From positions 1 to 37,371 of the IMG/VR virus record IMGVR_UViG_2579779116_000018: DNA of 37,371 nt; one strand, 5' to 3'. Source of the stretch: a virus. Its lineage: Duplodnaviria; Heunggongvirae; Uroviricota; Caudoviricetes. A model generated the notes under the pieces. It made no database searches, was not told where the DNA came from, and saw only the letters and a program-made list of their open reading frames with translations. Below, piece after piece: positions 534-37,371 of the stretch. Positions within the stretch are counted from its first letter, which is position 1. Each line of letters starts with the position of its first letter. The position numbers were made by a program, and so were the translations under genes.

Positions 534-549
534 GATATAAATATATCGT
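534..549. promoter_or_regulatory. 16 bp perfect palindrome CGATATAAATATATCG (possible operator)
   Basis: Perfect inverted repeat 30 nt upstream of the start of the 578-1624 gene; AT-rich core resembles a -10 element. Confidence 0.3.
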
Positions 550-4580: not shown

Positions 4581-4639
4581 AGTAGTTTCCTCTAAAATAA
4601 TAAGTTCACTACTATTTATTAGAGAAAATTGTCTTACTA

Positions 4640-4667
4640 TTGCATTCTCTATCTGAATGTGTATAAT
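4640..4667 (+). promoter_or_regulatory. putative sigma70 promoter for the 4735 gene
   Basis: TTGCAT (4640-4645), 16 bp spacer, TATAAT (4662-4667), in the divergent intergenic region 4581-4734. Confidence 0.4.
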
Positions 4668-4734
4668 ACGCGACCCTAAATCCCAAACCAACCATATTGA
4701 GGTTATGCCTATAAGTTAAAAAAGTGAGGTCTAT

Positions 4735-5304
4735 ATGATTCCAGTAATGGCTAAAGATATTGTTTTTACTCCTAAATCCTCCCGTGCTGTAACTCCATCG
4801 GCATTAGAACAACGCATTCTGACTCACATCAAAGATAAGGACTTACCATTAGTCTTTCATGGCTTTCTGGGTGAGTTTAAAGGGCTTCATTCAAGAATTG
4901 CTCTAACATGTACCCGATGCGGTAATAGAGCCGACAAATCAGCTACTAACCTGCTTAATGAAGGTAAACGATGTGTTTGCTTCAATAGTGACTACTTTCA
5001 ATATAAAGCGGGTGTGCCTTATCTCTATGTAATGAAGTCTGGGGATATTGGTAAATTTGGTGTTACAAAGTCAATCATCAAGCGACGTGTTAATCTGGGT
5101 GTACGCAATCCCGGTCATAACTTTGATATTGTCTTTGCTGGTGAAATGCCATCAATGAAACATGCTTTAGCCACTGAAAGAGCAATAAAGAGATTACTGG
5201 ATGTGGGTATAGGCGGGATTGAATACGGCAAAACTGAAACATTCCACTACTGCAATAAATCACTAAACAATATAAAGAATATTGCAAGTGTGGAGTGGAA
5301 CTAA
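4735..5304 (+). CDS. Zn-ribbon / T5orf172 domain protein, paralog C (189 aa)
   Basis: RBS GTGAGGT before ATG; one GEFKG...C..C...RCVC repeat and C-terminal PYLYV...GKFGVTKSIIKRR T5orf172-like segment. Confidence 0.75.
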   Translation: MIPVMAKDIVFTPKSSRAVTPSALEQRILTHIKDKDLPLVFHGFLGEFKGLHSRIALTCTRCGNRADKSATNLLNEGKRCVCFNSDYFQYKAGVPYLYVMKSGDIGKFGVTKSIIKRRVNLGVRNPGHNFDIVFAGEMPSMKHALATERAIKRLLDVGIGGIEYGKTETFHYCNKSLNNIKNIASVEWN

Positions 5305-6794
5305 TGCAAGATATTAAAATTCATTTTCAAGATTACAGTTTCGTTAAGGTTGATTGCTCTCCTTCTATCGGAATGGAATTAAGAGATTATTTCTCTTTTG
5401 AGGTTGAAGGGGCTAGGTTTAGCCCCCGATACAAGTATTCAGGCTGGGATGGACGAATAAGACTGTTTACGCATGAGAATACCCTACCAATTGGACTATT
5501 AAAAACGTTGGGTGTCTTTGTTAAAAATATGGGGTATTCAGTCTGGATTGACCCGCGATTGCTTGAGAAGGAAGATGTAACCAAAGAACAGATTGATTCA
5601 TGGATTGATTCTTTAGAAGTGTATTCCGGTAGCAATAAAATCAATCCTTACTGGTATCAGCGTGAAGCAGTCTTTCAGGGTATTCATAATCGCCGTAGAA
5701 TGCTGGTTCTTCCTACCAGTGCGGGTAAGTCATTGATTGCTTGTATGCTGTCTCGTTGGTACTTAGAGCATTACACCGGAAAGGTGTTAATCATTGTCCC
5801 GACTACATCGCTAGTGGTTCAAATGAGGGATGATTTCATCGATTATCGGTTATTCCCTTATGAAGCAATCCATACAATGATGAGTGGTAGCGGGAAACAT
5901 CCGGGAGACAGGTTAATCACGGTTAGTACCTGGCAATCAGCTTGCAAGATGCCTCCTGAATGGTTCAAACAATATGGAATGTTGATAGTTGATGAATCGC
6001 ATAAGGCTAGTGCCAAAAATATTACCAATATCATTAACGGAATGAATCATTGCCAATTTAAGATCGGCATGACTGGTTCCCCGAAAGAATCAAAGTGCCA
6101 TTTAATGCAGTATGTCGGGCTTTTCGGTGATATTTCCAAGATCGTGAGTATTGACCGCCTGATGGAAGAAGGGCAGGTGACAAAACTGAAAATTAACTGT
6201 CTTTTCCTTCGTTATACCGATGAGGAATGTAGCGCGGTTAAGGGGAGAGAATATGCGGAAGAGATCAAGTATATTACATCTAACCCACGACGTAATAAGT
6301 TTGCTTGCAATTTGGCGCTAAAACTCGCTAAGAAGGGCGAAAACGTATTCCTGATGTTCCGCAATACTAAGCACGGAAAACTTATGTATGACGCGTTACA
6401 GAAGGTACACGACAAGGTTTATTATATTGACGGTGGAGTTAAGACAGAAGAACGTGATGAATTTAAGAAAATGGCGGAGGGTGACACCGGGATCATTTGT
6501 GTTGCGTCTTATGGTGTGTTCTCTACTGGTGTTTCAATTAAGAATTTGCACCATGTTATTTTCGGTCATCCAGTGAAGGAATCAACTATCGTTCGTCAGA
6601 GTATCGGTCGTGCATTGCGTAAACATGGTTCTAAGGATATTGCAACGGTCTGGGATCTTATAGATCATCTGTGTATATTCGGTCGTAACGGAAAAATCAA
6701 GCATAAAAATTATGCGGTAAAACATGCACTTGAGAGAATCCGCTATTATCTAACCGACAAGTTCAGATATGCAACTAAAACAATTGCTATATAA
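5304..6794 (+). CDS. SF2 DEAD/DEAH-box DNA helicase (about 496 aa)
   Basis: Walker A LPTSAGKS, DESH box (LIVDESHKAS), motif III MTGSPK, motif VI VRQSIGRALR. Start taken as ATG 5304 (RBS GGAGTGG) rather than the ORF-track GTG at 5295. Confidence 0.85.
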   Translation: MQDIKIHFQDYSFVKVDCSPSIGMELRDYFSFEVEGARFSPRYKYSGWDGRIRLFTHENTLPIGLLKTLGVFVKNMGYSVWIDPRLLEKEDVTKEQIDSWIDSLEVYSGSNKINPYWYQREAVFQGIHNRRRMLVLPTSAGKSLIACMLSRWYLEHYTGKVLIIVPTTSLVVQMRDDFIDYRLFPYEAIHTMMSGSGKHPGDRLITVSTWQSACKMPPEWFKQYGMLIVDESHKASAKNITNIINGMNHCQFKIGMTGSPKESKCHLMQYVGLFGDISKIVSIDRLMEEGQVTKLKINCLFLRYTDEECSAVKGREYAEEIKYITSNPRRNKFACNLALKLAKKGENVFLMFRNTKHGKLMYDALQKVHDKVYYIDGGVKTEERDEFKKMAEGDTGIICVASYGVFSTGVSIKNLHHVIFGHPVKESTIVRQSIGRALRKHGSKDIATVWDLIDHLCIFGRNGKIKHKNYAVKHALERIRYYLTDKFRYATKTIAI

Positions 6795-13846: not shown

Positions 13847-13920
13847 ATAGGAAAGCCCTCAAAAATAAAGAATCTCTCCTATATTTATTGAGGGCTTTAG
13901 TGTGCCATTTAGTTTCAGTC

Positions 13921-15140: not shown

Positions 15141-15179
15141 GCCCCCATAGTTTTATGATTATTTATCACTATGGGGGGC
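15141..15179 (-). promoter_or_regulatory. intergenic stem-loop sequestering the SD of the downstream minor tail gene
   Basis: GCCCCCCATAG...CTATGGGGGC stem (10 bp, 18 nt loop) between the tape measure stop and ATG 15134; followed by UUUUCU-AUG on the minus strand. Confidence 0.45.
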
Positions 15180-18235: not shown

Positions 18236-18280
18236 TATTGTTTCCTCATTAATAGTGATTACGCTGTATTTATTTAGAAT

Positions 18281-24697: not shown

Positions 24698-26704
24698 TCA
24701 CTCTTCGCCCATTTTCAGAACTTTCAGAGCTTCCGGCTGAACTACGGTGAAGTCCAGGTCTACCCAGATACGCGGAACGATAGCAGACTGTGCGCGGTAA
24801 GTGGTGTCATCCATATCCAGTTCCAGACCACCCCATTCACCGATCATGATACCGGAGAAGTCACCCAGAACGATGTGGTCTGCCGGAATAACGCCAGAAG
24901 TAACTACATCGTAACCAGCCAGTTTGCCGTTTTCGATGATATAACCGGAAACGCCGTTATCTTTCAGGGTAGATTCCAGTTCAGCAGCAGTTGCACCGCT
25001 CATTGCAAACTTGATGGACTGTGCCGGAACGCCAGCGTCGGTCAGTGCTGCAATTTCTTTCAGGAAGTCTTTGTAAGAGAAGGCAGTTTTCTTAGTAACG
25101 CGACCACCGTCTACCAGTTGCTTAACCAGACCAGCCGGACCACGAGTATTATCTTTGTCAGACAGAATCAGTTGTTCCAGTTTGATCCGAACAGCTTTGT
25201 TAATGTGATCAGTGATCAGGGTAGCGATGCCGGGAACTTGCTTGATGCTCGCTCTGCTAATCGGGTTGCCTCCAGCAAACGTCTTAGGAGACATTTTCAC
25301 GTTCGAAAAGGTAGCCTTCGACTCGGGGGCACTTCCATTTTCATCAACAAAACCAAAGGCTTCGACGCTGGAAGCAGTCATTTTTGGTACTGCAATCGGG
25401 CTATTCAGACCAGACAGAACAGTCACACCCAGACGACCCAGACACGAAGCAGGAAGCAGCATTTCGATGTAGGATTCAGTCAGCAGTTTTTCATCGGTGA
25501 TAGCAGTCAGGTCAGCTTTGGTGTTGCCAGCAGCAGCAGCACGCATAGCAGCAGCCGGAACGAATACAGAGCCACCACGAGCAGCACGACCACGCTGCAT
25601 TGCAGCACCAGCAGCCATAGCGGAATATTCAGCTTCGTTAGCACCCAGAGCAGCACCATCTACCAGAGAGCGAATTACGTTGTTCAGGTCAAAAGTTTTT
25701 TCCATGTTTTTTTCCTTATTAATTTGTTCGTTATTACGTTGAGCATTGGTAATGTTATTTAGTGCCTTAGTGCGGAATGCTTCCGGCGTCATGTCTTTAA
25801 TTGCCAATGCGCGTTTCAATTCTTCGTCGTCAATATTTAGTTCGCGTGCAATTTCGCGAATTTCTAATTCGTCTTCTTCGGAACGTTCAGCCACTTCTTC
25901 GATTTTTTCTTCTTCAATCGGAGCGGCTTCACGTTCTTCTTTTACTTCTTCTTCTTCCCGAACAGTTGAACTATCATCATCAACACTTTCAGGATGTTCA
26001 GCGTCTTTTCCGTCTTCGAGATTTTCATCTTCTTTATTCTCTTCAACTTGGCGCTCTTGAGTTTCTTCAACTTCCGATTCTTTATTTTCTTCTACCGGAG
26101 TTTCTTCAACCTGAGCGGATTCTTGTTCTTCTTTGATTTCTTCGATTTGTTCTTTAGTCATATCGCGTTTAGCCCCCAAATTAACTGTGATAGTATTTAG
26201 AGAGCGATTTAAACCGACCGAATCATCGGCAGGGACCGTCACAAATGAAATTTCAAAAGGCGCCCACTTAGTAACAATCAATTGCCCTTTGGTGTAGTCG
26301 ATGTGATATTCTTTAATGTCATAACCGACAGAAATTTTTTCCATCGTACCTTCAATGACTTTATTGCGAATATCATTAGCCAAAGTGCCATGCTTAGAGA
26401 ATTTAACCAGAGCACGACCTACGTTATCCGTATCGATTCGAGCGTCGCAGACTACACCAATGTGATTATCGAAATTATGATTGAACAGCAACGGAGCGTT
26501 ATTATTCAGACGAGACAGATCAACCGCTTCCGGTGTATGTACCAGAATTTCATCTAATACCACCATTTCTTGATTTTGCTCATCCCAGAATTGGCGCTGG
26601 TAAGGCTGGGTACTGGAGAAAGCAATTTCAAATTCGTATTGATCGTTATGCCCTTCATTAATAACTCCACCGTAACCGTTAAGATCGCGGCGAAATTTAA
26701 GCAT
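24698..26704 (-). CDS. prohead protease (S78-like) - scaffold-like linker - HK97-fold major capsid protein fusion (668 aa)
   Basis: N-terminal domain with PLLFNHNFDNHIGVV, KISVGYDIKEYHID and FEISFVTVPADD (caudoviral prohead protease signature); Glu-rich about 120 aa linker; C-terminal about 350 aa typical of HK97-type capsid proteins; single uninterrupted ORF. Confidence 0.85.
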   Translation of the reverse strand: MLKFRRDLNGYGGVINEGHNDQYEFEIAFSSTQPYQRQFWDEQNQEMVVLDEILVHTPEAVDLSRLNNNAPLLFNHNFDNHIGVVCDARIDTDNVGRALVKFSKHGTLANDIRNKVIEGTMEKISVGYDIKEYHIDYTKGQLIVTKWAPFEISFVTVPADDSVGLNRSLNTITVNLGAKRDMTKEQIEEIKEEQESAQVEETPVEENKESEVEETQERQVEENKEDENLEDGKDAEHPESVDDDSSTVREEEEVKEEREAAPIEEEKIEEVAERSEEDELEIREIARELNIDDEELKRALAIKDMTPEAFRTKALNNITNAQRNNEQINKEKNMEKTFDLNNVIRSLVDGAALGANEAEYSAMAAGAAMQRGRAARGGSVFVPAAAMRAAAAGNTKADLTAITDEKLLTESYIEMLLPASCLGRLGVTVLSGLNSPIAVPKMTASSVEAFGFVDENGSAPESKATFSNVKMSPKTFAGGNPISRASIKQVPGIATLITDHINKAVRIKLEQLILSDKDNTRGPAGLVKQLVDGGRVTKKTAFSYKDFLKEIAALTDAGVPAQSIKFAMSGATAAELESTLKDNGVSGYIIENGKLAGYDVVTSGVIPADHIVLGDFSGIMIGEWGGLELDMDDTTYRAQSAIVPRIWVDLDFTVVQPEALKVLKMGEE

Positions 26705-26749: not shown

Positions 26750-28261
26750 TTAGGGATCGGCTGGGGAATTTTTTTCTTCACCCTCGCCATTAACGATAAT
26801 ATTTAGTGCGCTCTTTTCGGCTTGAATCTCTGAGAATACTTTTTCAGGATCATCACCACGTTCAAGAATAACGGCAGTACGTGATTTAAGTCCGTTATCA
26901 ATTAAAGCAATCTCGGCGCTTACGTCTTTAAATGGATCGACGGATTCAAAACGCGGACGGATAATAGTTGTATTATCGATAATATGCGGAATTGCAGTAA
27001 TACGAATCGGAACAATACCACGCGCGGAATAATGTCGAAGATAACTTTCGAAAATAGGCAATACAACCGTCTCAATTAATTTGTTTTGCAGTGCTTTAAC
27101 TCGTGTGCGCTGGGTTAGTTCCCCAAAACGCGCGGCTGAGTAGTTGATCTGTGAACAATCTCCTGTTAAGCCCTGTTTGAACACGCCTAAGCCCATTGAT
27201 ACGCTAGTAAACATCGCATCATTGAAGCTGTTAAAGTCATCACCGCTTTGCGTCGCCTGGATGCTCTTGATCGTTGCCCCTTCCGGTAATTCCTGAATAG
27301 TACCCGGTGCAAAATCCTGTACTACTTCCGGCGCTTGATATTGTTCATCATCTTCACCAGTATCAAAATCGTCACCAGAATCTTTCGGACGTTCGATAAA
27401 GCCCATAGAGCTAGCTGCAATACGTTTCTGGATGATCGCGGTTTCGCGGAATGCGTCTTGATGTGCGATATCCTTGATCACTGGCAGGAAGTCAGTCACA
27501 CCACGCAGGGATTCGGCTGTAAGTGGTTGATAATAATGGCATACTTGCGATGCATCTACGCGATAGTTATCACCTGTGTAAGTCTGAGTCAGTAGGTTGA
27601 TTTTACGAAACCAGTATGCAACAGGGCGCATTGTTTCTACGTCATACTCGATCCCCTGAAATATCGCACGGTCTTTGCTTACTTCACGATTGAGCGACCA
27701 GTCGCACTTATCAGCAGACAGGATAGAAACATTTAACTCATTGTTTTCTTTGGTTAAAACGATGAAGCACTCACCACCCATAACGCGCTCACGTTCAGCC
27801 ATTACCAGCAGTTCACGGAAGTTAAAGCGACCGTTACGAGAGAAGCGTTTAGCGTTCTGCGCCCACTTCCAGAAAGCATTCTCGATCTGCTTATTCAGTG
27901 CGCTATCAAGTTTGCCATTTGATTTAACGATTGACGGCTTAGGATCTAGGCCAGTAGCAACCACCATATCGGTGATGTATTGCGTGTAGCGACTGCCAAC
28001 GGAAGTGTTTAAGGCCAGAGTACGACCCTGATCATAAAGGCGCTTACCGTTCGATTTGAGAGCCTTATTGAAGGTTCCTGTAATGGTGTCTTGTTGAAGC
28101 TGCCCATCAATGCGATCACCGACTAAGCCCAAAGAACGCTTAGACAAATCTTTCTGGAATTTTTCTACTTGTTTGTCGATAAAGATTTTTTGTTGTTGCT
28201 GGCGGTGATTAGTTTTAACTGGAGTTTCTACCGCCTTTTTGCGTCGAAAAAGATTAAACAT
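26750..28261 (-). CDS. portal protein (503 aa)
   Basis: Size and position between large terminase and capsid genes; RBS AAGGGGTAAATC; acidic C-terminal tail. Confidence 0.85.
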   Translation of the reverse strand: MFNLFRRKKAVETPVKTNHRQQQQKIFIDKQVEKFQKDLSKRSLGLVGDRIDGQLQQDTITGTFNKALKSNGKRLYDQGRTLALNTSVGSRYTQYITDMVVATGLDPKPSIVKSNGKLDSALNKQIENAFWKWAQNAKRFSRNGRFNFRELLVMAERERVMGGECFIVLTKENNELNVSILSADKCDWSLNREVSKDRAIFQGIEYDVETMRPVAYWFRKINLLTQTYTGDNYRVDASQVCHYYQPLTAESLRGVTDFLPVIKDIAHQDAFRETAIIQKRIAASSMGFIERPKDSGDDFDTGEDDEQYQAPEVVQDFAPGTIQELPEGATIKSIQATQSGDDFNSFNDAMFTSVSMGLGVFKQGLTGDCSQINYSAARFGELTQRTRVKALQNKLIETVVLPIFESYLRHYSARGIVPIRITAIPHIIDNTTIIRPRFESVDPFKDVSAEIALIDNGLKSRTAVILERGDDPEKVFSEIQAEKSALNIIVNGEGEEKNSPADP

Positions 28262-28271
28262 GATTTACCCC

Positions 28272-28766
28272 TTATCGCGTAAGACGTAATTTGATATTTT
28301 TAATCGGGCTAATTCCCTGTTTACGTCGTTCGGCTTGAATTAATTTAGATAACTGACGTTCATAATCAGTCTTCAATTGCTGGAGAACACCCAATGACTC
28401 ATAGGCGAAAGTATTCCCTTTCACTGTCATTTGAGATAATGCGGCTTCGTCCCCAGATAAACGGGCGAAAATAACTTGCTCGATTAAGGCGATAGTTTCC
28501 CGCAGATAGTCTTTCTTGGTCTGTTTCTGGAATACTGGCAATACAGTTAATTCCTGCATAGAGATTAATTCATCGTCACGAGTAATAACGATGGTCATTT
28601 TTCCTTCTGGGAAGTCTAATGTTTTAATCTCGTGATTTTCCGGTGCATCATCGACTTGATAAACGATAGCTTTACTATTTCCGACCTGAATGGTTACACC
28701 CTCTTCATTCGCCAGCGTTATTTTTTCGCCTTTACGAATTACTAAGGGAATTAGTTCTAAACTCAT
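28272..28766 (-). CDS. hypothetical head morphogenesis protein (164 aa)
   Basis: Located between large terminase and portal genes (position of lambda W-type genes); RBS AAGGGGTAATT; no motif recognised. Confidence 0.55.
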   Translation of the reverse strand: MSLELIPLVIRKGEKITLANEEGVTIQVGNSKAIVYQVDDAPENHEIKTLDFPEGKMTIVITRDDELISMQELTVLPVFQKQTKKDYLRETIALIEQVIFARLSGDEAALSQMTVKGNTFAYESLGVLQQLKTDYERQLSKLIQAERRKQGISPIKNIKLRLTR

Positions 28767-28838: not shown

Positions 28839-30743
28839 TTAGAACGATGTTACCCAGCTACGGCCTCTATTTGGGCGTCTGGCGATGTTTTGACGTTGTG
28901 GTCGTGTGATTGGCTTAGTTTCTTCGATTTGCTCGTCAGATTGCGATTTAGGAGCTTCTACAGGTTCTTCTGGTTCACGGTTCAAACTATCTTTGATGGC
29001 TTCGAGTTTTTCCCATGACATTTTATTGAGTACATGACGAGAAGCAGCATAGGAATAAGCCAGGCAGTCGAGAGCCTCGTTTCGTTGCTGACCAACTTTT
29101 ACCCAACGTGTGGTATTACCCTGCCGTTTCAACTGTTCAGATAACAATTGCTCGCAATAGTCATCAGGAACGTCACCAATCTGGAAGACCGTATGAGGAT
29201 CGCTGTCTCTCAAGTTCCGGTTAATCATTTCACGGATCATCGTCTTAAGGTTGTTTACGCCCAGAATTTTGAGAGTAAAACCGCCCGTTCTTGTGTCCTT
29301 AGCCGGAAGGATTGGAGCATCAGCATTACTTGCGCCTTTAATGGCGCATAGGTTTTGCCACCTAGTGCAAAAACGGTAGATCACGTTTGTAGCTCGTCCG
29401 TTCGATGAGTCCACGAAAGCAGATAACATCGGGATTCGTTCACCGGATCGGGTATAGAATTTCGCTTTCAGGAAGTTATAAAGCTGGTCATATGCTGGCG
29501 ATTCGTGGCGTTCGCAGTTCACATCATAGAATGATCGGTGATCAACTACGCATATCCCCTTACGAGAGATACCCAGCAAGGTAGATTCCAGACGGTCTTT
29601 TTGCTGGTCAACTCCACCTACCAGAGCCAGTACATCATCAGGAATATTGTCTAGGCTAATATCAGTTTTCAGCGTTTCCAGTTCGTCGGCTGTGCGGTCT
29701 TCGTTAAGATCATCGAAGGTTTCGCCTAAGACAGTGTTATAGAACGTTGCCAGGGACATATTCGCGTAGCTATCAGCAAAGTCCACCACACACGCACGGA
29801 TAGAACTAAACGGAGACATAAGGCGGTTAGCATGAAAACCGATTACTTCCGCATTTGGTTCGGTGGCGACCCATTCTCCCTGAGCAACAGCACGGAGGCG
29901 ATCCCCTTCGGTCCAATCGGTTTCACATTCAGGGCAACGGTAAACGGCTGTATCTGGGTTGGGTAATGATTTACCGTTAATCGTATGCCAATCGAAATGT
30001 ACGTTACTCCATTCCATTACGTGCTTGTGTCCGCAATGCTGGCAAACGACATGATATTTTCTCTTATCCGAGAGTTCCCATTGTTGGTTAATCGCCCCAT
30101 CACGAGCGGTTGGAGTGGAAGCAATTACGATCCTTGCATCTTCCCCGAAAGTGGTTGCGCGTTGTTCCGCTAGCTGGATCGGGTTCCCTTCGTCTGACTC
30201 ATCAGCCGCATCAACTTCATCAAGAATAATCAAAGGGAGTGTTTTACCGCGAAGATGTGACGGACTATTCAACGACATGAAATACATAAACGATCCGTTA
30301 CGAAGCTGAATAATCGATGAGTTGTTAACGGCATTGCGATCTGATTTGTCGGTGATCATCGCTTTTAATTCTGGCGTTGCCTCTAATACTGGCTTCACCT
30401 TACCAGCGATCCAAGAATTTAGTTCCCTAACGTTACTTTGCAAGACCCCAATATTAGTAGGGTTACTCGCGATCCGATGGAAGATAATTCCGTTAAGAAT
30501 CATGGTCTTACCCAACTGCGCCGAACATTTAAACACAATTTTTCTACGGTCTTCGGTGATCGCGTCCATCATTCCACGTTGGAAGGGATGCAATTTAATT
30601 AGCGATCCGGCTTTAACACCATCGGTTGCAACTACATTAGCCTCTACCCATTCGCTAGGTTTCATGGCTTTAGGTGGGCGAATTGCAGCAGAGATATTTC
30701 TGAGAATCTTTTTTAATTTTGCCTTATTAGAAATCAGTTTCAT
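28839..30743 (-). CDS. terminase large subunit, lambda gpA-like (634 aa)
   Basis: HPFQRGMMDAI, Walker A-like KCSAQLGKTM, Asp-rich LIILDEVDAADE, Cys cluster CQHCGH...CPEC; first gene of the minus-strand late operon. Confidence 0.9.
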   Translation of the reverse strand: MKLISNKAKLKKILRNISAAIRPPKAMKPSEWVEANVVATDGVKAGSLIKLHPFQRGMMDAITEDRRKIVFKCSAQLGKTMILNGIIFHRIASNPTNIGVLQSNVRELNSWIAGKVKPVLEATPELKAMITDKSDRNAVNNSSIIQLRNGSFMYFMSLNSPSHLRGKTLPLIILDEVDAADESDEGNPIQLAEQRATTFGEDARIVIASTPTARDGAINQQWELSDKRKYHVVCQHCGHKHVMEWSNVHFDWHTINGKSLPNPDTAVYRCPECETDWTEGDRLRAVAQGEWVATEPNAEVIGFHANRLMSPFSSIRACVVDFADSYANMSLATFYNTVLGETFDDLNEDRTADELETLKTDISLDNIPDDVLALVGGVDQQKDRLESTLLGISRKGICVVDHRSFYDVNCERHESPAYDQLYNFLKAKFYTRSGERIPMLSAFVDSSNGRATNVIYRFCTRWQNLCAIKGASNADAPILPAKDTRTGGFTLKILGVNNLKTMIREMINRNLRDSDPHTVFQIGDVPDDYCEQLLSEQLKRQGNTTRWVKVGQQRNEALDCLAYSYAASRHVLNKMSWEKLEAIKDSLNREPEEPVEAPKSQSDEQIEETKPITRPQRQNIARRPNRGRSWVTSF

Positions 30744-30828
30744 GTAATTACCCTCATTACGAAATATGAAGGTATTTATTAAATTGTTGATATTTTGATA
30801 AATACGGGTATTAATTAAAGGGGGTTGT

Positions 30829-31431
30829 ATGCTAATTAATCAGCAACAAAGAGATGAATTAGAATTAGCCTTGTCTTGTACCGATCATGAATATCGTTTA
30901 CCAGTTAAGCATAAGCATTTAAAAACCGACTACACAACATCTGGCTTTAGTCGTGAGGAAGCGAAAGAGATTTTAATCGAGTTGTATCGCGATCATGGGT
31001 ATACCGATATTCATAACTTCTTTAAGAAGCATCGCACATCACAGACAGAGTTTCGGAGAGTCCGAGATTGGTTTGATTTTGATATCAAGCGTTATTATCG
31101 CATTGATGACGGTCCTATCTATAGGTTGCAGTGGAAGCCGATCCGAGAAGTGTTGAAACAGAAGAGATTGAATCACGCTATTACACGCTATCGTAACGTG
31201 GCTTTCAAGAAAGGCTATGGTGATACAAGGGAATTGTTTGTAGAACTCGCTAACGTGCGTTATAGCCACTATTACAACGATCCTAAAGGGTTCTTTGAAG
31301 TGCTTCGCAAGGTTGATATAAGTCGGGGGACATACTATTCACGGTTGAAGAAGTACGGGATTAAGGCAGAGTTCTTTATGTCGGTTGACGATGGAGAACT
31401 TTTTCCGATAAAATGTAAGTCCTCTAAATAA
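30829..31431 (+). CDS. hypothetical protein with C-terminal DNA-binding-like motif (200 aa)
   Basis: RBS AAAGGGGGTT; C-terminal RGTYYSRLKKYGIKAEF resembles the motif in 31467-31694 and 34911-35093. Confidence 0.6.
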   Translation: MLINQQQRDELELALSCTDHEYRLPVKHKHLKTDYTTSGFSREEAKEILIELYRDHGYTDIHNFFKKHRTSQTEFRRVRDWFDFDIKRYYRIDDGPIYRLQWKPIREVLKQKRLNHAITRYRNVAFKKGYGDTRELFVELANVRYSHYYNDPKGFFEVLRKVDISRGTYYSRLKKYGIKAEFFMSVDDGELFPIKCKSSK

Positions 31432-31466
31432 AGGTGAACATTCACTTTAATTTGGAGGAAGTAACT

Positions 31467-31694
31467 ATGACTACTAAAGCTACTCGCGGTCGCCCTGCCC
31501 GTTTTAACGCTGAACAGATGGCTGATATTGCCTACGCTTACTATACAGCGGATCGTGGTAAGGAAGCGAAAGAACAGATTCTTAGTGAACATGGGATCTC
31601 AATCGCCCAATTCTATAAGAATATGAAGAAGTTAGACATTAAATTCTATGTTCAGATCGGTGATGGTCAGATCGTAGAAGCAACAGGTTTTTGA
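31467..31694 (+). CDS. small putative DNA-binding protein (75 aa)
   Basis: Start at ATG 31467 with strong RBS GGAGGAAG; N-terminal TRGRPARF (AT-hook-like) and C-terminal IAQFYKNMKKLDIKF motif. Confidence 0.55.
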   Translation: MTTKATRGRPARFNAEQMADIAYAYYTADRGKEAKEQILSEHGISIAQFYKNMKKLDIKFYVQIGDGQIVEATGF

Positions 31695-31708
31695 GTTTTG
31701 ATTCTCTT

Positions 31709-31732
31709 TGCCACTCTTCGGAGTGGCTTTTT
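31709..31732 (+). terminator. rho-independent terminator
   Basis: GCCACTC-ttcg-GAGTGGC hairpin followed by TTTTTT, directly after the 31467-31694 gene. Confidence 0.7.
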
Positions 31733-31828
31733 TGTATGTAAAACAATCGGCGCAAAACTGCGCTCATCTCGAAGCTGAGTCCAAATCTTGACTGGTCTAT
31801 AGATGCCAGCAAAAATGCTGTTATCTAT

Positions 31829-31863
31829 AAAAACAAAAAGCCCAGCGCAATTATGCGCCGGGC
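31829..31863 (-). terminator. rho-independent terminator after the Rha gene
   Basis: Minus-strand GCCCGGCGCA-uaau-UGCGCUGGGC (one G-U) followed by UUUUUGUUUUU. Confidence 0.65.
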
Positions 31864-31869
31864 GATTAA

Positions 31870-32700
31870 TCAGATCCCAAAATCAACAAGGGAAATTACG
31901 TTACCTGATTCACGAATCTGTTTAGCAGCTTTGTTTTGAATCAGAATAGTGTTATTTGGCTGCGGTAGTTTAAGAGTTGCTTTTTGTTCTTCTTCCAGAA
32001 TACCCAATTCAACCAACACAGGAAGAACATCAACAGTAAACTCAAGTTGGTAGTGAGCATTCATGCGGCAGAAAGACAGAGAAGAGTCATTAGCAACATA
32101 CCCACACGGCTTGTTATTTTCATCGTAGACGCGCTCAATGTAGCCAGCAGTACGCAAGGCCGTCAGTGCTTCTTTAACCTTCGTAGCGCCCTTTTTAGCG
32201 CCTAACAGACGGGTCATTGAATGGCTATCTACGGATTTGCGAACATGAAGTTCAATCAGCTTTTTATTTTCGCGAGTTTTCTTTAATGCCAGTTCGATCC
32301 AGTCTGTTTCTTCAAAGTCTGCATACGGGTTAACGGCTAAACGTTCCTGACGCAGTTTTTCATTTTCTTCTTTCAGTCGCTTCCATTCCTGAATAACAAC
32401 CATTCGACGCTTAACATCGTAACCAGTGACAAGAGTCAGCGTCATTTCTTCGTCTAAGTGATATACTGGTTCTTTAACAGCATATCCTAAGTTATTGATT
32501 CTCTCGACAAATTCAGTTTTGAGCTGATCGATAATACCTAAAGATTCGTACATTTCGCGAATATCGCGCATTACATTGCTGTGCTTCTTATCGGTAAATT
32601 CAGCGATCTGACGAGAAGACATGGTCAGCGGTTTGGTGTTATCAACAACCAGAGACACGGAAGCAGTTTTAACAGTATTCATAGTAGTAACAGTATTCAT
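31870..32700 (-). CDS. Rha-family phage regulatory protein (276 aa)
   Basis: N-terminal LTMSSRQIAEFTDKKHSNVMRDIREM matches the Rha signature; RBS AAGGGGAATT; gene begins with an 18 nt direct repeat (MNTVTT-MNTVKT). Confidence 0.8.
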   Translation of the reverse strand: MNTVTTMNTVKTASVSLVVDNTKPLTMSSRQIAEFTDKKHSNVMRDIREMYESLGIIDQLKTEFVERINNLGYAVKEPVYHLDEEMTLTLVTGYDVKRRMVVIQEWKRLKEENEKLRQERLAVNPYADFEETDWIELALKKTRENKKLIELHVRKSVDSHSMTRLLGAKKGATKVKEALTALRTAGYIERVYDENNKPCGYVANDSSLSFCRMNAHYQLEFTVDVLPVLVELGILEEEQKATLKLPQPNNTILIQNKAAKQIRESGNVISLVDFGI

Positions 32701-32803
32701 AGTAAAAATTCCCCTTAAACGGTTTAGTGATTGATTCTCCTGTTTTTAACTGTCCACACGCCAACGGCGCGCGGAACAATTTTATTTATAAGAAGTTTTT
32801 ATC

Positions 32804-32950
32804 TCATTTAGATTCAGCAATCGCGCGATCAATTTCTTCTTGAATGCGACGCTGGCGTTCATGGAAGTCAACCATTGAGAAATTCAGGTTTGGGGTCCAC
32901 GGTTTGCGGTTCGGGTTTTTACGTCCATCAATTTTCTTAGTAGTGTTCAT
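32804..32950 (-). CDS. small basic protein (about 48 aa)
   Basis: Hand-found ORF MNTTKKIDGRKNPNRKPWTPNLNF... with RBS AAAGGGG, immediately downstream of the minus-strand promoter. Confidence 0.35.
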   Translation of the reverse strand: MNTTKKIDGRKNPNRKPWTPNLNFSMVDFHERQRRIQEEIDRAIAESK

Positions 32951-33008
32951 AATTAACATCCCCTTTACAAATCTAGGTCAAATAGGTTCAAAGTTGTCAA
33001 GTGCGATA

Positions 33009-33037
33009 ATCATAAAAAAGTCAGAAATTTTTGTCAA
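33009..33037 (-). promoter_or_regulatory. sigma70-type promoter (minus strand)
   Basis: On the minus strand TTGACA (33032-33037), 17 bp spacer, TATGAT (33009-33014); drives the small ORF and Rha gene. Confidence 0.5.
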
Positions 33038-33072
33038 TACCCCTTGACAAGACGCCAAAGGGTTGACCTAAC

Positions 33073-33525
33073 TTACAGCATATCTAAGCCTTCATCGTAA
33101 CCGTAGAAGCCACCGTGAGAAGAAAAACAGATTGGAGCGTAGTCTTCGTCTTCCTCATCTTCTTCATCTTGTTCTGGGGCTTCCTGAGCGGGTTGTTTAC
33201 CATAATCAGCCATAATCTGGTCAAGATCGGCGATCCCATAGTAAGAGCCTAAATCAACGTCATATTCACGAACATCAAACGGCAGGTCATCACGAACAAT
33301 AATTGCCGGAATGTTGTTGTATTGTTCACGACCTTCATCAGTAAAGCAGTCTACGATCACCGTAGGGCGACCATTACGTTTAAAAGCATAGAAAGCAGTT
33401 GAGAAATTGGAGTCTTCGGAATGACGAATGATGTTATAACCACGATTAGCGAAAACATGCATCATAGCCAGATTATCATCATGGTTCAGACCCAGAAGTA
33501 CGAAAGGAGTTTTAGTATTGATCAT
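33073..33525 (-). CDS. acidic hypothetical protein (about 150 aa)
   Basis: Start placed at ATG 33523-33525 with RBS AGAGGATACCACT; C-terminal acidic run EEDEEDED; first leftward gene leaving the control region. Confidence 0.6.
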   Translation of the reverse strand: MINTKTPFVLLGLNHDDNLAMMHVFANRGYNIIRHSEDSNFSTAFYAFKRNGRPTVIVDCFTDEGREQYNNIPAIIVRDDLPFDVREYDVDLGSYYGIADLDQIMADYGKQPAQEAPEQDEEDEEDEDYAPICFSSHGGFYGYDEGLDML

Positions 33526-33725
33526 AGTGGTATCCTCTAAAAGAAAGTGAATCAAACAAAGTACACTAGTATTTATAACGAGAATTTTTTATCTATTTGG
33601 AAGTGATTAGATTCAGTCGGCTTCGCCTCCTTCATAGATTTTGATTAAATCATCATCAAAACGAAGAAGTATCTTTAGAATATAAGAATCTTTCTTTTGG
33701 AGAAATTATAATCAGGAAGCAATTT

Positions 33726-34057
33726 AGCAACCGAAGGTTGCAATCCCGAAGGGATACCAATACCTTTCATGATCATTAAAGTGATCTAGAATCATCTAGT
33801 AACCAGTTAACTACTATTATCTTCAAAGTGATTATTACTATCTTTCTAGAATCAGTTAGTAACTAGTTTAAAATCCCTTTCAAGAAAATCCTTTCAGAAG
33901 TGATTCTCGATGCCACGCAGTGGCGTCGCAGACGTTTGAGAGTGAGCGAAGCGAGCGAGCAAACTAGTTAATTCCTTCTAAGACCATCTAGTATCATCTA
34001 GTTTAAATTAGTGTTACTAGAAGTAATTGGTTAGCGCTTCGCGCAGTCGGGCTACGC
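33726..34057. repeat. three pairs of short tandem hairpins interleaved with CTAG-rich AT-rich repeats
   Basis: Pairs at 33726-33753 (GCAACCgaaGGTTGC + ATCCCgaaGGGAT), 33911-33934 (GCCACgcaGTGGC + CGTCgcaGACG), 34032-34057 (GCGCttcGCGC + GGGCtacGCCC), separated by repeats such as TCTAGAATCATCTAGTAACCAGTT. Confidence 0.4.
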
Positions 34058-34203
34058 CCTCCTAATATCTTTTTGGTTATTTGTTGTTTTTGGTTTTACA
34101 CATGAGCGTAGCGAATGTGTTATATAATATCTATGCACGCCCGATCCCCGCTTTTGCCCCTCACTAAGTTAATGTTTTATAAAGAGTTTTTCTTACCAAT
34201 CCT

Positions 34204-34393
34204 TTTCGGGGGCAAATTTCAGGGGCAAAAATTAGATTTTCAGGGGCAATTATTGGCATTTCAGGGGCAAAAATGAGGGGCAAAATCACCGTTTCCCAGA
34301 ATTTCAGGGGCAAAAATAGTAGGTTTCAGGGGCAAAAATGGGATAGTGAAATCTAGGGGGATTTTGGTTCAGGGGCAAAATTCAGGGGCAATT
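34204..34393. repeat. iteron-like direct repeats, consensus TTCAGGGGCAAAA (about 10 copies)
   Basis: Copies at approx 34204, 34218, 34238, 34260, 34274, 34304, 34324, 34352 (degenerate), 34369, 34381, irregularly spaced; all same orientation; immediately upstream of the promoter at 34461. Confidence 0.7.
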
Positions 34394-34460
34394 TTCATAG
34401 TGTAGGGCTAGTGTAGGTTTGAAAGTCCTTTCTTGACACTATGTAGGTTTGGTGCTATAC

Positions 34461-34490
34461 TTGACAATTCGAGAAAAAATGTGGTATAAT
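34461..34490 (+). promoter_or_regulatory. strong sigma70 promoter with extended -10
   Basis: TTGACA (34461-34466), 18 bp spacer, TGGTATAAT (34482-34490). Confidence 0.6.
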
Positions 34491-34727
34491 ATTTGTATTG
34501 AAAGTGAAAATTTACCGATTTTCCTTCCTATTGTTATCACCGTGTTAAATTGTTATATGTTTGTGAAGATTTGGATCTGAGAGAAAATCTTGTAACAAAT
34601 CTTTACAATTCATAGCTCAATTAATGCTCACCGCTTTAGCAAAAAGTGCTATGCAATTTTCTAAATTGATTGAATAAACATCAATTTGGTTAATTCGTGT
34701 TCTTCTCTTTAGCAATTCGTGCTGCGG

Positions 34728-34780
34728 TTTAACACATTTAACACGTCTGATAACATCTGAATAACATTTTAACATATCTC
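34728..34780 (+). repeat. five phased TAACA repeats at about 10-11 bp spacing
   Basis: TTAACACA, TTAACACG, GATAACATC, AATAACATT, TTTAACATA in the same orientation, one per helical turn. Confidence 0.4.
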
Positions 34781-34817
34781 TGTTATAAATACATATATAA
34801 GAGATAAATGTGAGGGG

Positions 34818-34847
34818 TTGAAAAATAAAATACAATCCCCATATAAA
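34818..34847 (+). promoter_or_regulatory. possible second promoter
   Basis: TTGAAA (34818-34823), 18 bp spacer, TATAAA (34842-34847); weaker match. Confidence 0.3.
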
Positions 34848-34854
34848 TAATAGT

Positions 34855-34875
34855 GAGCGGTTAACGCTCTTTTTT
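34855..34875 (+). terminator. intrinsic terminator / attenuator within the leader
   Basis: GAGCG-gttaa-CGCTC hairpin followed by TTTTTT, 35 nt upstream of ATG 34911. Confidence 0.5.
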
Positions 34876-34910
34876 AAGAAATCATTAATCCAGATTTAGG
34901 AGGATTTAAG

Positions 34911-35093
34911 ATGGCACGACCTGTTAAGTTCACTCGTGAAATCGTTTTAGAAATGGCAAAGCGTTATTTTGAACTGACACCTGATGTAGTGATGGGTGAA
35001 TGGTTTAAAGGTGAAGGTATTGATCAATCAACCTTCCACAAACTCTTAAAGAAGTATGACATTAAAGTAAAGATTACCGCAGAGGTGTGGTAA
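34911..35093 (+). CDS. small putative DNA-binding protein (60 aa)
   Basis: Strong RBS AGGAGGA; MARPVKF N-terminus and STFHKLLKKYDIKVKI C-terminal motif, paralogous to 31467-31694. Confidence 0.6.
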   Translation: MARPVKFTREIVLEMAKRYFELTPDVVMGEWFKGEGIDQSTFHKLLKKYDIKVKITAEVW

Positions 35094-35206
35094 TAACCTT
35101 TCACTGAGAATTATATGATGGCTTTAAAAAAGAAAAAGCCTCCCTTGTTGCAGCAAAGGAGGCTTGAAATGAACAATTAAAACTAACTTTCCACGGAGTA
35201 TTTATA

Positions 35207-36148
35207 ATGTTATTTTCCGCTAACTTTTTCACTAACGAAGTAACCAACGCTAAAGCAGTTATCAAATTTGGCACCGAAGCAAACAAGAAGATTCAGCCGA
35301 AAGTTGTTGCTCATGTTTCCTTTGCACAGCAGAAATCCGCTTTCGCTGGCTTTAAAGCACATCGTGAAGCACTGATCGCGGCTGGCTTTGGTGTTGACGG
35401 TAAACTGCCTAACGGCATTCGTAAAGCAATCGACCGCGTTAAACCTGCTAAAGACGTTGCAGTAGACCACATCGTTACTTTTACCGTTAAGAACTCTTCT
35501 GAACTGTTCCACCTGGTTATTGCTGGTGATACTGCTATCGTTTCCGCTCCTAACATGGATTTTCAGGATACCGCTGATTGCCAGATCACCTTCGGTCGTC
35601 GTAAAGAAGTTACCGGAAAAGCTAAACTGAACTTCACTAAATCCGGCAATCCTTACTTTGCTGTTTTCTTTAACAGCCACGCTACCGAAAAAGAAGTTGT
35701 AGAACTGGTTGCTTATGAAGGTGAAGAGAAAGAACGTATTGAATCTTGCGAAGCATTTCTGGAACTGGAAGCACAGGTGAATGCTGTTTCTCCGGTTGTT
35801 GAAGATCGCTTTGCTGCACTGGAAGCACAGATCGCAGAACTGAAAGCTGCACTGGAAGAAAAAGACCAGATTATCGAAGCACAGAAAGCTGAGATTGAAG
35901 AACTGAAAGCTAAAGAAGTTGCTCCGGTGGCAGTAGTTGAAAACGCGGCTGATGAGGCCGCAAATGATGAAGTAGAAGTGAAAATCGATGTGATGCGTGA
36001 TCCGATGGCTGCACTGCAATTACTTCGTTCTTTTAAGGGCAAATCTCATTTTTCTAGTGATGTAGAAGATGAGGAAGAAGAACAGAAACGCAATGCTGCA
36101 ATGCTTCATGATGAAATGTACGGTACTAACTTTTCTTACTGCCAATAA
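35207..36148 (+). CDS. abundant hypothetical protein with coiled coil and acidic C-terminus (313 aa)
   Basis: RBS GGAG; codon usage visibly different from the rest of the window (CTG, GAA, AAA, GCT, CGT-rich, as in highly expressed E. coli genes); heptad-like EAQIAELKAALEEKDQIIEAQKAEIEELKAKE; followed by terminator. Confidence 0.75.
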   Translation: MLFSANFFTNEVTNAKAVIKFGTEANKKIQPKVVAHVSFAQQKSAFAGFKAHREALIAAGFGVDGKLPNGIRKAIDRVKPAKDVAVDHIVTFTVKNSSELFHLVIAGDTAIVSAPNMDFQDTADCQITFGRRKEVTGKAKLNFTKSGNPYFAVFFNSHATEKEVVELVAYEGEEKERIESCEAFLELEAQVNAVSPVVEDRFAALEAQIAELKAALEEKDQIIEAQKAEIEELKAKEVAPVAVVENAADEAANDEVEVKIDVMRDPMAALQLLRSFKGKSHFSSDVEDEEEEQKRNAAMLHDEMYGTNFSYCQ

Positions 36149-36171
36149 AAAAAGGGACTCCGAAGAGTCCC
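36146..36171. terminator. bidirectional hairpin terminator
   Basis: GGGACTC-cgaa-GAGTCCC flanked by AAAAAAA on the plus side (U-run for the minus-strand transcript) and TAGTAAGTTT on the other. Confidence 0.6.
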
Positions 36172-36245
36172 TAGTAAGTTTAGGTTAGGTTGCACAACAA
36201 AGATGAGGTTATAATGAACATAATGCTACATTATCTAGTAAAGCC

Positions 36246-36273
36246 AGAAAAATAACCGCCCCTTTCGAGGCGG
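36246..36273 (-). terminator. second minus-strand terminator (tandem)
   Basis: Minus-strand CCGCCUC-gaaa-GGGGCGG (one G-U) followed by UUAUUUUUCU. Confidence 0.5.
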
Positions 36274-36431
36274 GAGGATTAATACTCAATCTATACTTGT
36301 TATGTTTTTATGTTGTATAGTCACTGACTATGAAAACACTGTACTGAATGTGTTTTATGGCTTTTAATCGGGAACTCTCTTTCGAAAATTCCCTGTTAAA
36401 ACCACATAAGGAGAAATGGCAGATTACAATA

Positions 36432-36716
36432 TTATTTAGTCTGTTTGAAAACAAACGTTAAAAATTCGATTAAGCAATATACCCAGCATACAGTAAGCAG
36501 TAGATGCATAGAAATAGCCGGATGGAAGTTAAAAAGTGTCATACTAACTAGACCAACAATATAAGAAATCCCTTCGACAATTAAAGCTAGACTAGAAAAT
36601 GCAACAAACGCACCTAAGAATAATTCAGCACGTTCTCGATTTTCGGTTCCGAGTTTATAAGCAGAAATAACAGCCAGAATAGTAATGATGACAGCATAGG
36701 TAATAAAAGTAGCCAT
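36432..36716 (-). CDS. small integral membrane protein (94 aa)
   Basis: RBS AGAGGATATAAAACT; three predicted hydrophobic helices; function unknown, holin-like size. Confidence 0.55.
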   Translation of the reverse strand: MATFITYAVIITILAVISAYKLGTENRERAELFLGAFVAFSSLALIVEGISYIVGLVSMTLFNFHPAISMHLLLTVCWVYCLIEFLTFVFKQTK

Positions 36717-36742
36717 AGTTTTATATCCTCTTAAAAGTTAAG

Positions 36743-36761
36743 CGGGGGAGAACATCCCCCG
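36743..36761. other. GC-rich hairpin CGGGGGA-gaaca-TCCCCCG
   Basis: Same stem as the hairpin at 19453-19471 with a different loop; sits between the Nu1-like gene and the membrane protein gene. Confidence 0.4.
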
Positions 36762-36810
36762 TAGACGTTGACCCGTTCAACATCTTTCATACATTTATTT
36801 ATAACGCGTT

Positions 36811-37371
36811 TTAAGACACATCAAATTCATCGTCTTCTTCTGGTTCTTGTTCTTGTTCTTCCGGTTCATCCATTAATGGTAATTCTTCTTCCTCGTCTTC
36901 TCCCAAATCTGCATTTTCGAACAAGTCCCCTACTTCATTTAAACGACGCTCGATAATCTCCCTTAGCTTATTCTTTAATGTTTTCTGGTCAGTGGCAGAT
37001 TCGAGAATTTCTAAAGCGTCGATTGTGGCGATCTGCAAAATAGTCTGCTTCACTTTCCCGCAGTATTCCGCTAGTTCCTGTTCTACATACCCGACCGGAA
37101 TCAGGAGATTCATAGCTTCCTGGTTCTCTCGTTCGGCTGCATCCGCTAATGCTCTTTCCCGGCGCAACTTCTCAACATCTATTTGTTCTTTTATAGAAGT
37201 TTCTTTGAGCGGATTAATGATGTTCTTCAAGACCCATTCTGTCCCTTCTTTGGCTGGTACGCGTCGTGTATTGGTATTAAATGGCATTCCTCGTTCTTGC
37301 CATTTCTTAGCGGCGTTAATTGTATAGCCGTATAAGCGGGAAATTTCTGTAAGGGTTAATTCTTCTTTCAT
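36811..37371 (-). CDS. Nu1-like DNA-binding protein, candidate terminase small subunit (at least 186 aa)
   Basis: N-terminal LTLTEISRLYGYTINAAKKWQERGMPF resembles the lambda Nu1 winged-helix segment (IRTIQNWQEQGMPV); acidic C-terminus. The ATG coincides with the last 3 nt of the window, so the true 5' end is not verifiable. Confidence 0.6.
   Translation of the reverse strand: MKEELTLTEISRLYGYTINAAKKWQERGMPFNTNTRRVPAKEGTEWVLKNIINPLKETSIKEQIDVEKLRRERALADAAERENQEAMNLLIPVGYVEQELAEYCGKVKQTILQIATIDALEILESATDQKTLKNKLREIIERRLNEVGDLFENADLGEDEEEELPLMDEPEEQEQEPEEDDEFDVS

Follow-up and report, generated by a model that had tools for sequence, protein, structure and literature searches.

The question raised by the Caudoviricetes record IMGVR_UViG_2579779116_000018 (37,371 nt; "the window" denotes this whole stretch) is whether its lambda gpA-type large terminase subunit (TerL) is served by a small subunit (TerS) encoded far away from it. 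A sequence-only reading of this DNA had placed the gpA-like gene about 6 kb from the only Nu1-like gene, and this proved correct: the stop codon of terS and the ATG of terL are 6,067 bp apart, and a scan of the 531 six-frame open reading frames (ORFs) of the window with the TerS family profile and lambda Nu1 as queries found no second copy of TerS. Likewise, PHROGs revealed no other window ORF resembling any TerS, and a search of genome contigs with the TerS profile gave no match. Judged from sequence, predicted structure and gene order in relatives, the remote gene is very likely a genuine terS whose product, a divergent protein of the lambda Nu1 family, works with TerL despite the 6-kb separation and the separate transcription units. 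The features at issue are:

28839-30743, minus strand: terL, lambda gpA-type large terminase of 634 amino acids (aa), assigned with Pfam and PHROGs
36811-37371, minus strand: terS, very likely a Nu1-family small terminase of 186 aa, with a predicted N-terminal winged helix-turn-helix (wHTH), long helices as far as about residue 153 and an acidic, disordered tail whose last residues are DDEFDVS
36743-36761, minus strand: terminator-like hairpin directly 3' of terS, part of which (36756-36770) is conserved in Salmonella and L047 relatives

The assignment of TerL is straightforward, as both gpA domains score above the curated thresholds: (i) an N-terminal ATPase (Pfam GpA_ATPase, PF05876; 5.4e-62, 210.1 bits against a cut-off of 25.6); and (ii) a C-terminal endonuclease (GpA_nuclease, PF20454; 4e-47, 161.3 bits against a cut-off of 22.5). 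In addition, TerL matches phrog_15 at 1e-144. The TerS of the window matches phrog_57, annotated as terminase small subunit, at 6e-15 over residues 1-174. Lambda Nu1 itself matches the same family at 1.3e-76 (the first ~70 residues of the query sequence agree with the chains in the PDB), and two relatives of the window protein, the homologue in PQ671644 and a 53%-identical one, match it at 9e-20 and 1e-18, respectively. A profile built from 11 members of the TerS family has as its best PDB matches the Nu1-type DNA-binding domains 6hn7_B (1.2e-4), 1j9i (8.6e-4) and 7lw0, and aligns to residues 2-126 of lambda Nu1, i.e., beyond the DNA-binding domain. An AlphaFold2 (AF2) model of TerS, with a predicted local distance difference test score (pLDDT) of 70.6, contains a beta-helix-helix-beta wHTH (strand 4-6, helices 7-13 and 20-26, strand 37-39) followed by a 49-residue helix and further helices up to residue 153; the acidic tail after them is disordered. 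When this model was submitted to Foldseek, the top matches were the TerS DNA-binding domains 7lw0, 7lxs, 1j9i and 6hn7_B (probability 0.97-0.99), followed by excisionases and MerR-like proteins. Profile, model and fold search thus agree in predicting an N-terminal wHTH of the Nu1/MerR-like type.

The check proposed by the sequence-only reading, synteny in related genomes, showed that the split is kept in close relatives and that the homologue is adjacent to TerL in about 25 distant ones. The split order, with a gap of 5.8-8.6 kb, was found in 35 of 35 related loci holding both genes, as well as in complete Escherichia coli chromosomes and in Salmonella contigs (gap ~6.3-6.4 kb), which argues that it is neither chance nor an assembly artefact. 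When a divergent TerL allele was used as the query, 54 loci were recovered. Where TerL is 47-57% identical (L105, L106, L107 and L134), the TerS homologue lies 4.8-6.7 kb upstream of TerL. In the ~25 distant loci (L108, L109, L111-L124, L126, L128, L131-L133, L135 and L136), the identity of TerL is 35-43%, the portal and protease-capsid fusion that come after TerL are the same as in the window, and the TerS homologue (28-34% identity, profile E-values of 1e-15 to 1e-32) is immediately upstream of TerL on the same strand, with the two genes overlapping or at most ~70 bp apart, like Nu1 and A of lambda. Two of the homologues, those of L124 and L105, match phrog_57 at ~1e-20. The TerL-adjacent homologues are the decisive evidence that the remote gene very probably encodes a TerS. 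The proposal that the small subunit is encoded remotely is therefore well supported by the full-length match to the Nu1-family profile, the PDB profile matches, the fold and the TerL-adjacent homologues. The head genes that follow terL in the window are:

28272-28766, minus strand: gp164, in the downstream head module
26750-28261, minus strand: lambda-family portal, in the downstream head module
24698-26704, minus strand: protease-capsid fusion, a single 668-aa ORF in which an acidic linker joins a Peptidase_S78 prohead serine protease domain to an HK97-type major capsid domain

In the phage collection a single relative was found, PQ671644 ("Escherichia phage DCP80"), with a TerL 43% and a TerS 33% identical to those of the window. 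Bases 1-111 of this record are repeated at 30600-30710, which indicates a circular or concatemeric unit of 30.6 kb. In this unit terS and terL are 6,082 bp apart, and the interval contains small genes on the opposite strand as well as 1.3 kb of non-coding DNA; terS comes directly after the lysis genes (endolysin), there is no integrase-sized gene, and two small co-oriented genes, which have no counterpart in the window and no PHROG match, precede TerL. The record itself (PQ671644.1; L002, 1-30710) is chimeric: it is classed as a T4-like Gaprivervirus, its first 30.6 kb belong to an unrelated lambda-terminase phage, and T4-like genes (motA, rIIA) follow. In a neighbor-joining tree of TerL, the adjacent-type loci form one clade and the split-type loci another, with PQ671644 basal to both.

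Further evidence comes from the allelic structure of terL, of which three alleles were distinguished (compared in the window, L036, L020 and L040). Between alleles A and B, identity over residues 17-580 is 49-58%, but residues 1-16 (MKLISNKAKLKKIL[K/R]N) and the last ~54 are common to both; their DNA identity profile has sharp cassette boundaries inside terL that spare codons 1-16 and about the last 50, and both are accompanied by the same TerS and the same portal. Allele C, on the other hand, has a core 77-91% identical to that of B with its own N- and C-termini, and its partner TerS is only 52% identical, while p200, its direct neighbor, keeps 94% identity. The first 16 aa of TerL track the TerS allele across cassette swaps. 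At the extreme C-terminus of TerS, a [DE][DE]F[DE][VIL]S motif is kept after a variable acidic linker. In lambda, the C-terminus of Nu1 binds the N-terminus of gpA, and the C-terminus of gpA binds the portal. By analogy, the co-variation suggests the same domain logic here, with TerS on the N-terminus of TerL and the portal on its C-terminus.

Several points weigh against this identification. The best Pfam match of the window protein is indeed Phage_Nu1 (PF07471), but it is sub-threshold (E-value 0.016, 15.3 bits against a cut-off of 30), and a search of NCBIfam with TerS gave no match. The wHTH fold is common to excisionases and MerR-type regulators, so that fold alone cannot separate a TerS from an excisionase. 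The contact between TerS and TerL is read only from lambda and from the mosaic boundaries, and the co-variation is short of conclusive because recombination needs flanking homology and could also make the same boundaries. The cos site was not located by searches based on a conserved element upstream of terS, on contig ends and on similarity to lambda. Finally, with PQ671644 basal in the TerL tree, the rearrangement may have gone in either direction, and the split may have arisen once or several times.

Some of these points could favor an alternative in which the Nu1-like gene, near the attachment (att) site, encodes a DNA-binding regulator or an excision factor, i.e., a recombination directionality factor (RDF), the real TerS being an unrecognised small protein near terL (p200, h86 or gp164). 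Apart from the sub-threshold Pfam match, terS is merely ~366 bp from attR of a prophage with a serine integrase, its wHTH also matches the excisionase RdfS, Pukovnik Xis, MerR and BldC in Foldseek, and lambda Nu1 itself weakly matches excisionase PHROGs. Such a factor would be a small wHTH protein that is linked to an integrase and unlinked to packaging, whereas the window protein has 186 aa with helical and acidic extensions, its match to phrog_57 is full-length and takes in regions outside the DNA-binding domain, and in the ~25 distant relatives its homologues are encoded directly upstream of TerL. Moreover, the integrase-less PQ671644 unit retains the protein, which disfavors a role in excision. 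Nor do the two small genes upstream of TerL in PQ671644 offer a different TerS, as they lack both a window counterpart and a PHROG match. The regulator or RDF alternative is thus highly unlikely, also in view of what was found for the small proteins encoded next to terL:

30829-31431, plus strand: p200, two tandem winged-helix-like modules, divergent from terL; AF2 pLDDT 75
31434-31694, plus strand: h86, a winged-helix-like paralogue, followed by a terminator at 31710-31727
34911-35093, plus strand: h60, of 60 aa and winged-helix-like, with h86 and each half of p200 as paralogues

The sequence-only reading had named 30829-31431 as an example of a true small subunit, should the Nu1-like protein be a regulator. 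This suggestion found no support, and p200 was rejected as a candidate. No terminase match was found for p200 in PHROGs, Pfam, NCBIfam, PDB sequences or PDB folds. Its family is confined to this phage lineage, and no homologue was found in the distant relatives or in the PQ671644 unit. Neither does p200 co-vary with TerL: in the allele C loci, p200 and h86 remain 90-96% identical to those of the window though they are the immediate upstream neighbors of terL, and p200 keeps this identity where TerL and TerS have both diverged to ~53-56%. The same objections (divergent orientation, no similarity to TerS, absence from distant relatives and no co-variation) apply to h86. Instead, h60, h86 and each half of p200 are paralogous modules of ~55 aa (R-P-x-x-F ... 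G-I-x-x-x-T-[FY]-[YH] ... K-K-[YL]-x-I-K), predicted as three helices and a hairpin, for which Pfam, PHROGs and the PDB gave no match. They may represent an uncharacterised family of phage DNA-binding proteins.

In a second alternative, the split would reflect a decaying, non-functional prophage with a broken packaging operon, or an assembly artefact. The close relatives are without exception known as prophages only, a search at the DNA level found no match among isolated virion genomes, and at least one relative has an interrupted terS (in L038 / L092 1383-3581, an insertion of ~1.6 kb leaves residues 1-63 and 58-186 on separate pieces, and this copy is presumably defective). However, the same order with intact ORFs recurs in Salmonella and in 64 complete E. 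coli genomes (DNA related to the window was found in 64 of 5,426), and its persistence across TerL divergence to ~43-51% identity points to long-term selection. In addition, the relative in PQ671644 was co-assembled from a phage preparation, and its wrap-around repeat indicates a circular or concatemeric genome of 30.6 kb. The breaks in Logan contigs fall exactly on the att junctions, which is what a mixture of occupied and empty or excised forms would give. Decay or artefact is therefore extremely unlikely.

A genuine but remote TerS leaves the question of how far the two genes are uncoupled. A gene of the Nu1 type is characteristically directly upstream of, and co-transcribed with, the gpA-type subunit; in the window, terminators and opposite-strand genes lie between them. 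The gap contains eight ORFs in four alternating transcription units, namely m94 (minus), p313 and h60 (plus), p160, p51 and rha (minus), and h86 and p200 (plus), and every unit is closed by a terminator-like hairpin (36761-36743, 36273-36256, 36172-36153, 35165-35136 and 31863-31840, all minus; 31710-31727, plus). As merely 85 bp separate the ATG of terL from the divergent ATG of p200, terL is the first gene of its own strand block, with divergent plus-strand genes upstream, which bears out what had been read from the sequence alone. The separation would alter the expression of the subunits and not their function, as each gene has its own upstream region.

If TerS acts as lambda Nu1 does, it would bind cos-adjacent sites through its N-terminal wHTH and oligomerise through its long helices. 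Its conserved acidic/aromatic C-terminal tail could then dock on the basic N-terminal peptide of TerL (MKLISNKAKLKKILKN) and so recruit TerL, which would nick cos and translocate the DNA. In the lineage at hand, made up of temperate phages from E. coli, Salmonella and their relatives, the whole early/control region lies between terS and terL, which are adjacent in distant relatives.

The position of cos bears on why the genes are arranged in this way. It had been suggested that a cos site may lie just beyond the window edge, and this remains plausible to the extent that a conserved element was found upstream of terS, although it has no detectable likeness to lambda cos. Beyond the window, the region upstream of terS in close relatives contains A-tracts, an invariant TTGACA and the invariant GC-rich GTGCAGTGCAGCCC and GCGGTCGCTACGCGAC at -161 to -126, of which GCGGTCGCTACGCGAC (-141 to -126) is invariant in 37 of the 37 close loci that hold the region. 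Some 165-237 bp beyond position 37371 is a 73-bp element, GGTaCT ... GcGAGTTTCGgcaGCCCGtTcTTTT ... CGTgTATa (L041 152-224; L016 13662-13734). In 80 loci (54 distinct sequences), comprising both gene orders, there is exactly one copy in each, in every case upstream of terS and on its strand, and the 1.65 Mb searched contained no copy elsewhere; in split genomes, the element stays with terS and not with terL. It could be cos or a late-control site.

These observations are the basis of a refinement of the remote-TerS reading, in which TerS is genuine and the gene order is set by cos: cos and terS would form one unit at the left virion end, giving the map cos-terS-early region-terL...lysis. In its favor are the 73-bp element, which accompanies terS in both gene orders, the invariant GCGGTCGCTACGCGAC in the 37 close loci, and the position of terS after the lysis genes in PQ671644, as that of Nu1 in lambda across cos. 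Against it, the element was not detected in PQ671644; neither an nhmmer profile of the element nor blastn-short picked lambda cos in the (circularised) lambda genome, and no dyad symmetry was seen in it. The element would equally well serve as a late promoter or an activator site, and no contig ends at it: the ends of Logan and IMG/VR contigs are at att junctions or host genes, with no common phage site that could mark genome ends. We regard the cos-determined order as a tenable possibility. A stronger form of it, in which cos-terS is a self-contained recognition cassette uncoupled from the TerL motor gene, the match between the subunits being kept only by two short docking peptides, the acidic ...DEFDVS tail on the TerS side and residues 1-16 on the TerL side, is offered tentatively, as possible but less likely than not. 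If it holds, the virion chromosome would start with cos-terS, the entire early/replication region would be placed between the terminase genes, and whole ATPase-nuclease cores would be swappable between phages with packaging specificity kept.

A likeness by eye of the element to lambda cosN ("CCTCGCG..GTTTCGGC") was dismissed, being unsupported by nhmmer and blastn-short. Folding of the terS leader and of the element gave no sign of a structured RNA or terminator (z-scores of +1.1 and +0.07; no pairs in RNAalifold). The motif CTTTCCC, considered as a counterpart of the lambda R sites, has four of its seven genomic copies around the terS start; the motif was selected post hoc, L040 does not conserve it, and it is a weak lead.

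The interval between the terminase genes is the early and control region of the phage, judging from its contents, and not a random insertion. A smaller prophage version has the integrase arm as its only other non-structural DNA, which supports placing the replication and control functions in the interval. Besides h60, h86 and p200, it contains:

36432-36716, minus strand: m94, a small hydrophobic protein downstream of terS, variable and absent from many relatives, probably accessory
35207-36148, plus strand: p313, an acidic coiled-coil protein, presumably iteron-binding (replication-initiator-like)
33556-34910: non-coding, ori-like control region of 1.35 kb with strong promoters, iterons and repeats
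33073-33555, minus strand: p160, with an acidic C-terminus
32804-32959, minus strand: p51, a small ORF with a promoter-like site (33037-33009) ahead of it
31870-32700, minus strand: Rha/anti-repressor-like regulator (Pfam Phage_pRha, 3.2e-12; phrog_8235/63), followed by a terminator at 31863-31840
30744-30828: divergent intergenic region of 85 bp with the presumed promoters of the terL operon and p200, a conserved block (30766-30782) and DATAAATA on both strands

In the non-coding control region, two near-consensus sigma-70 promoters (34433-34461 and 34461-34490, plus strand; 12/12 and 11/12 matches) face h60-p313, about 11 phased CAGGGGCAAAA iterons occupy 34204-34397, and TCTAGnATCATCTAGTA repeats are found at 33785-34010. 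The GGGGCAAA iterons occur only in relatives with p313; where an unrelated 331-aa protein replaces p313, AAACCTACACTA repeats are present instead. No family match was found for p313 in PHROGs, Pfam or NCBIfam. The 331-aa protein has a coiled-coil and acidic layout like that of p313, but the two have no significant similarity beyond the coiled-coil stretch and are thus positional analogues only. The GGGGCAAA array was also considered as a set of TerS sites (cosB) and was ruled out, as it follows p313 whatever the TerS allele; this co-variation suggests that the iterons are sites for p313 (as an initiator-like protein or a regulator) and not for TerS. Together, the iterons and p313 look like an exchangeable iteron/initiator (or operator/regulator) module.

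A 12-mer, TGAGCGWAGCGA, is found at 33943-33954 and 34103-34114 of the same region, and every relative, those from Salmonella and PQ671644 among them, has one or two copies in its long non-coding region. In PQ671644 (L002, 728-739 and 877-888), the early proteins have no detectable similarity to those of the window. The GCGNAGC inside TGAGCGWAGCGA is presumably the very stable DNA mini-hairpin motif of some phage origins, which we take as a lead only; TGAGCGWAGCGA may be an origin or a single-strand initiation signal. Similar GCGAAGCGA clusters were seen in the non-coding region of an adjacent-type relative (L115, 2570-2760). A search of Rfam with 30700-37371 gave no match.

The DATAAATA motif of the terL-p200 intergenic region recurs in the window (536-543, 13882-13889, 15160-15167, 18267-18274, 30773-30780, 30797-30804, 32783-32790, 33570-33577, 34784-34849 and 36796-36803). 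Its total is not above chance (13 against 9.2 expected), but its placement looks promoter-like, as 12 of the 13 copies are 15-120 nt upstream of a same-strand start codon, including those of terL and p200, and it also precedes terS in relatives.

Compared with known systems, the locus resembles lambda in that TerL has both gpA domains, TerS falls in the Nu1 PHROG and likewise has an N-terminal wHTH with helical regions after it, the portal belongs to the lambda family, and a gene occupies the gpW position between TerL and the portal. It differs in that lambda nu1 (191-736) overlaps A (711-2636) and is 190 bp from cosN, whereas here 6,067 bp, separate units and the early region intervene; furthermore, the window TerL is only ~28% identical to that of lambda, and the acidic, disordered tail of TerS is unlike that of lambda. 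Terminase genes are non-contiguous in other cos phages as well. This holds for P2/186 (gpM and gpP), where in P2 gpM is encoded in the divergent O-N-M-L operon, away from P, and PaP3 (p01, p03) reportedly has non-contiguous small and large terminase genes. These phages have other protein families and a short separation (one to a few structural genes), with morphogenesis genes between the subunits rather than an early/replication region. PMC3488191 deals with PaP3.

The closest sequenced relative in the phage collection, the PQ671644 unit, has the same split, a 1.3-kb non-coding region and TGAGCGWAGCGA motifs; it departs from the window in its lack of an integrase, the position of terS directly after lysis, the two small co-oriented genes before TerL and the chimeric record with a T4-like genome. 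More generally, terS usually neighbors terL, but proximity "is not a universal feature", as TerS of the Pseudomonas phage E217 is encoded ~58 kb from TerL (PMC9611059). E217 shares with the window a terS remote from terL; on the other hand, it is an unrelated myovirus with another terminase type, and no lineage-wide split with adjacent-type relatives was reported there. A remote terS is thus already known; what is found here is that the whole early region separates the genes of a lambda-type Nu1/gpA pair, an order conserved across a prophage lineage. The gene order is unusual but explainable, and it is no new packaging mechanism.

The arrangement has practical consequences, as annotation pipelines and prophage tools often seek terS beside terL. 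In the genomes inspected, the NCBI Prokaryotic Genome Annotation Pipeline labels this TerS "hypothetical protein", so that the whole E. coli/Salmonella prophage lineage looks TerS-less. The lineage also offers natural experiments, in the form of adjacent versus split orders and of core swaps in TerL that leave residues 1-16 and the last ~50 untouched. These could help to map the TerS-docking and portal-docking peptides of gpA-type terminases, and the lineage allows a test of whether coupled expression of both subunits matters.

With a G+C content of ~41%, the window is an almost complete prophage of an enterobacterial host. It starts with the ATG of a plus-strand ORF, and its last triplet is the ATG of the minus-strand Nu1-like ORF. 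The element is integrated by a large serine recombinase:

1652-3331: large serine recombinase of 559 aa, which integrates the prophage inside ycdX (PHP-family phosphatase)

In strain VTB96775v, the element is at 2889481-2924272, where it interrupts ycdX beside ghrA. Position 1 of the window is ~40 bp from one junction, and the ATG of terS is 366 bp from the other (attR), so that the window lacks only the att-proximal non-coding ends. A search of the literature on prophages in ycdX found nothing relevant. The integration inside ycdX was also noted at L016 (13864-14268) and L017 (11140-11481). Another relative (L044) has the phn operon beside terS, an arrangement suggestive of a second integration site. 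An exact 16-mer scan of viral contigs recovered the known relatives plus further contigs. Around the serine integrase (578-1624, 3405-4691, 4735-5304 and 5295-6794) are genes for three CapR-homology-domain proteins, one of which also has a MUG113/T5orf172 domain, and for a UvsW-like helicase. As they are absent from the otherwise similar VTB96775v prophage, these genes are variable cargo, possibly related to defence.

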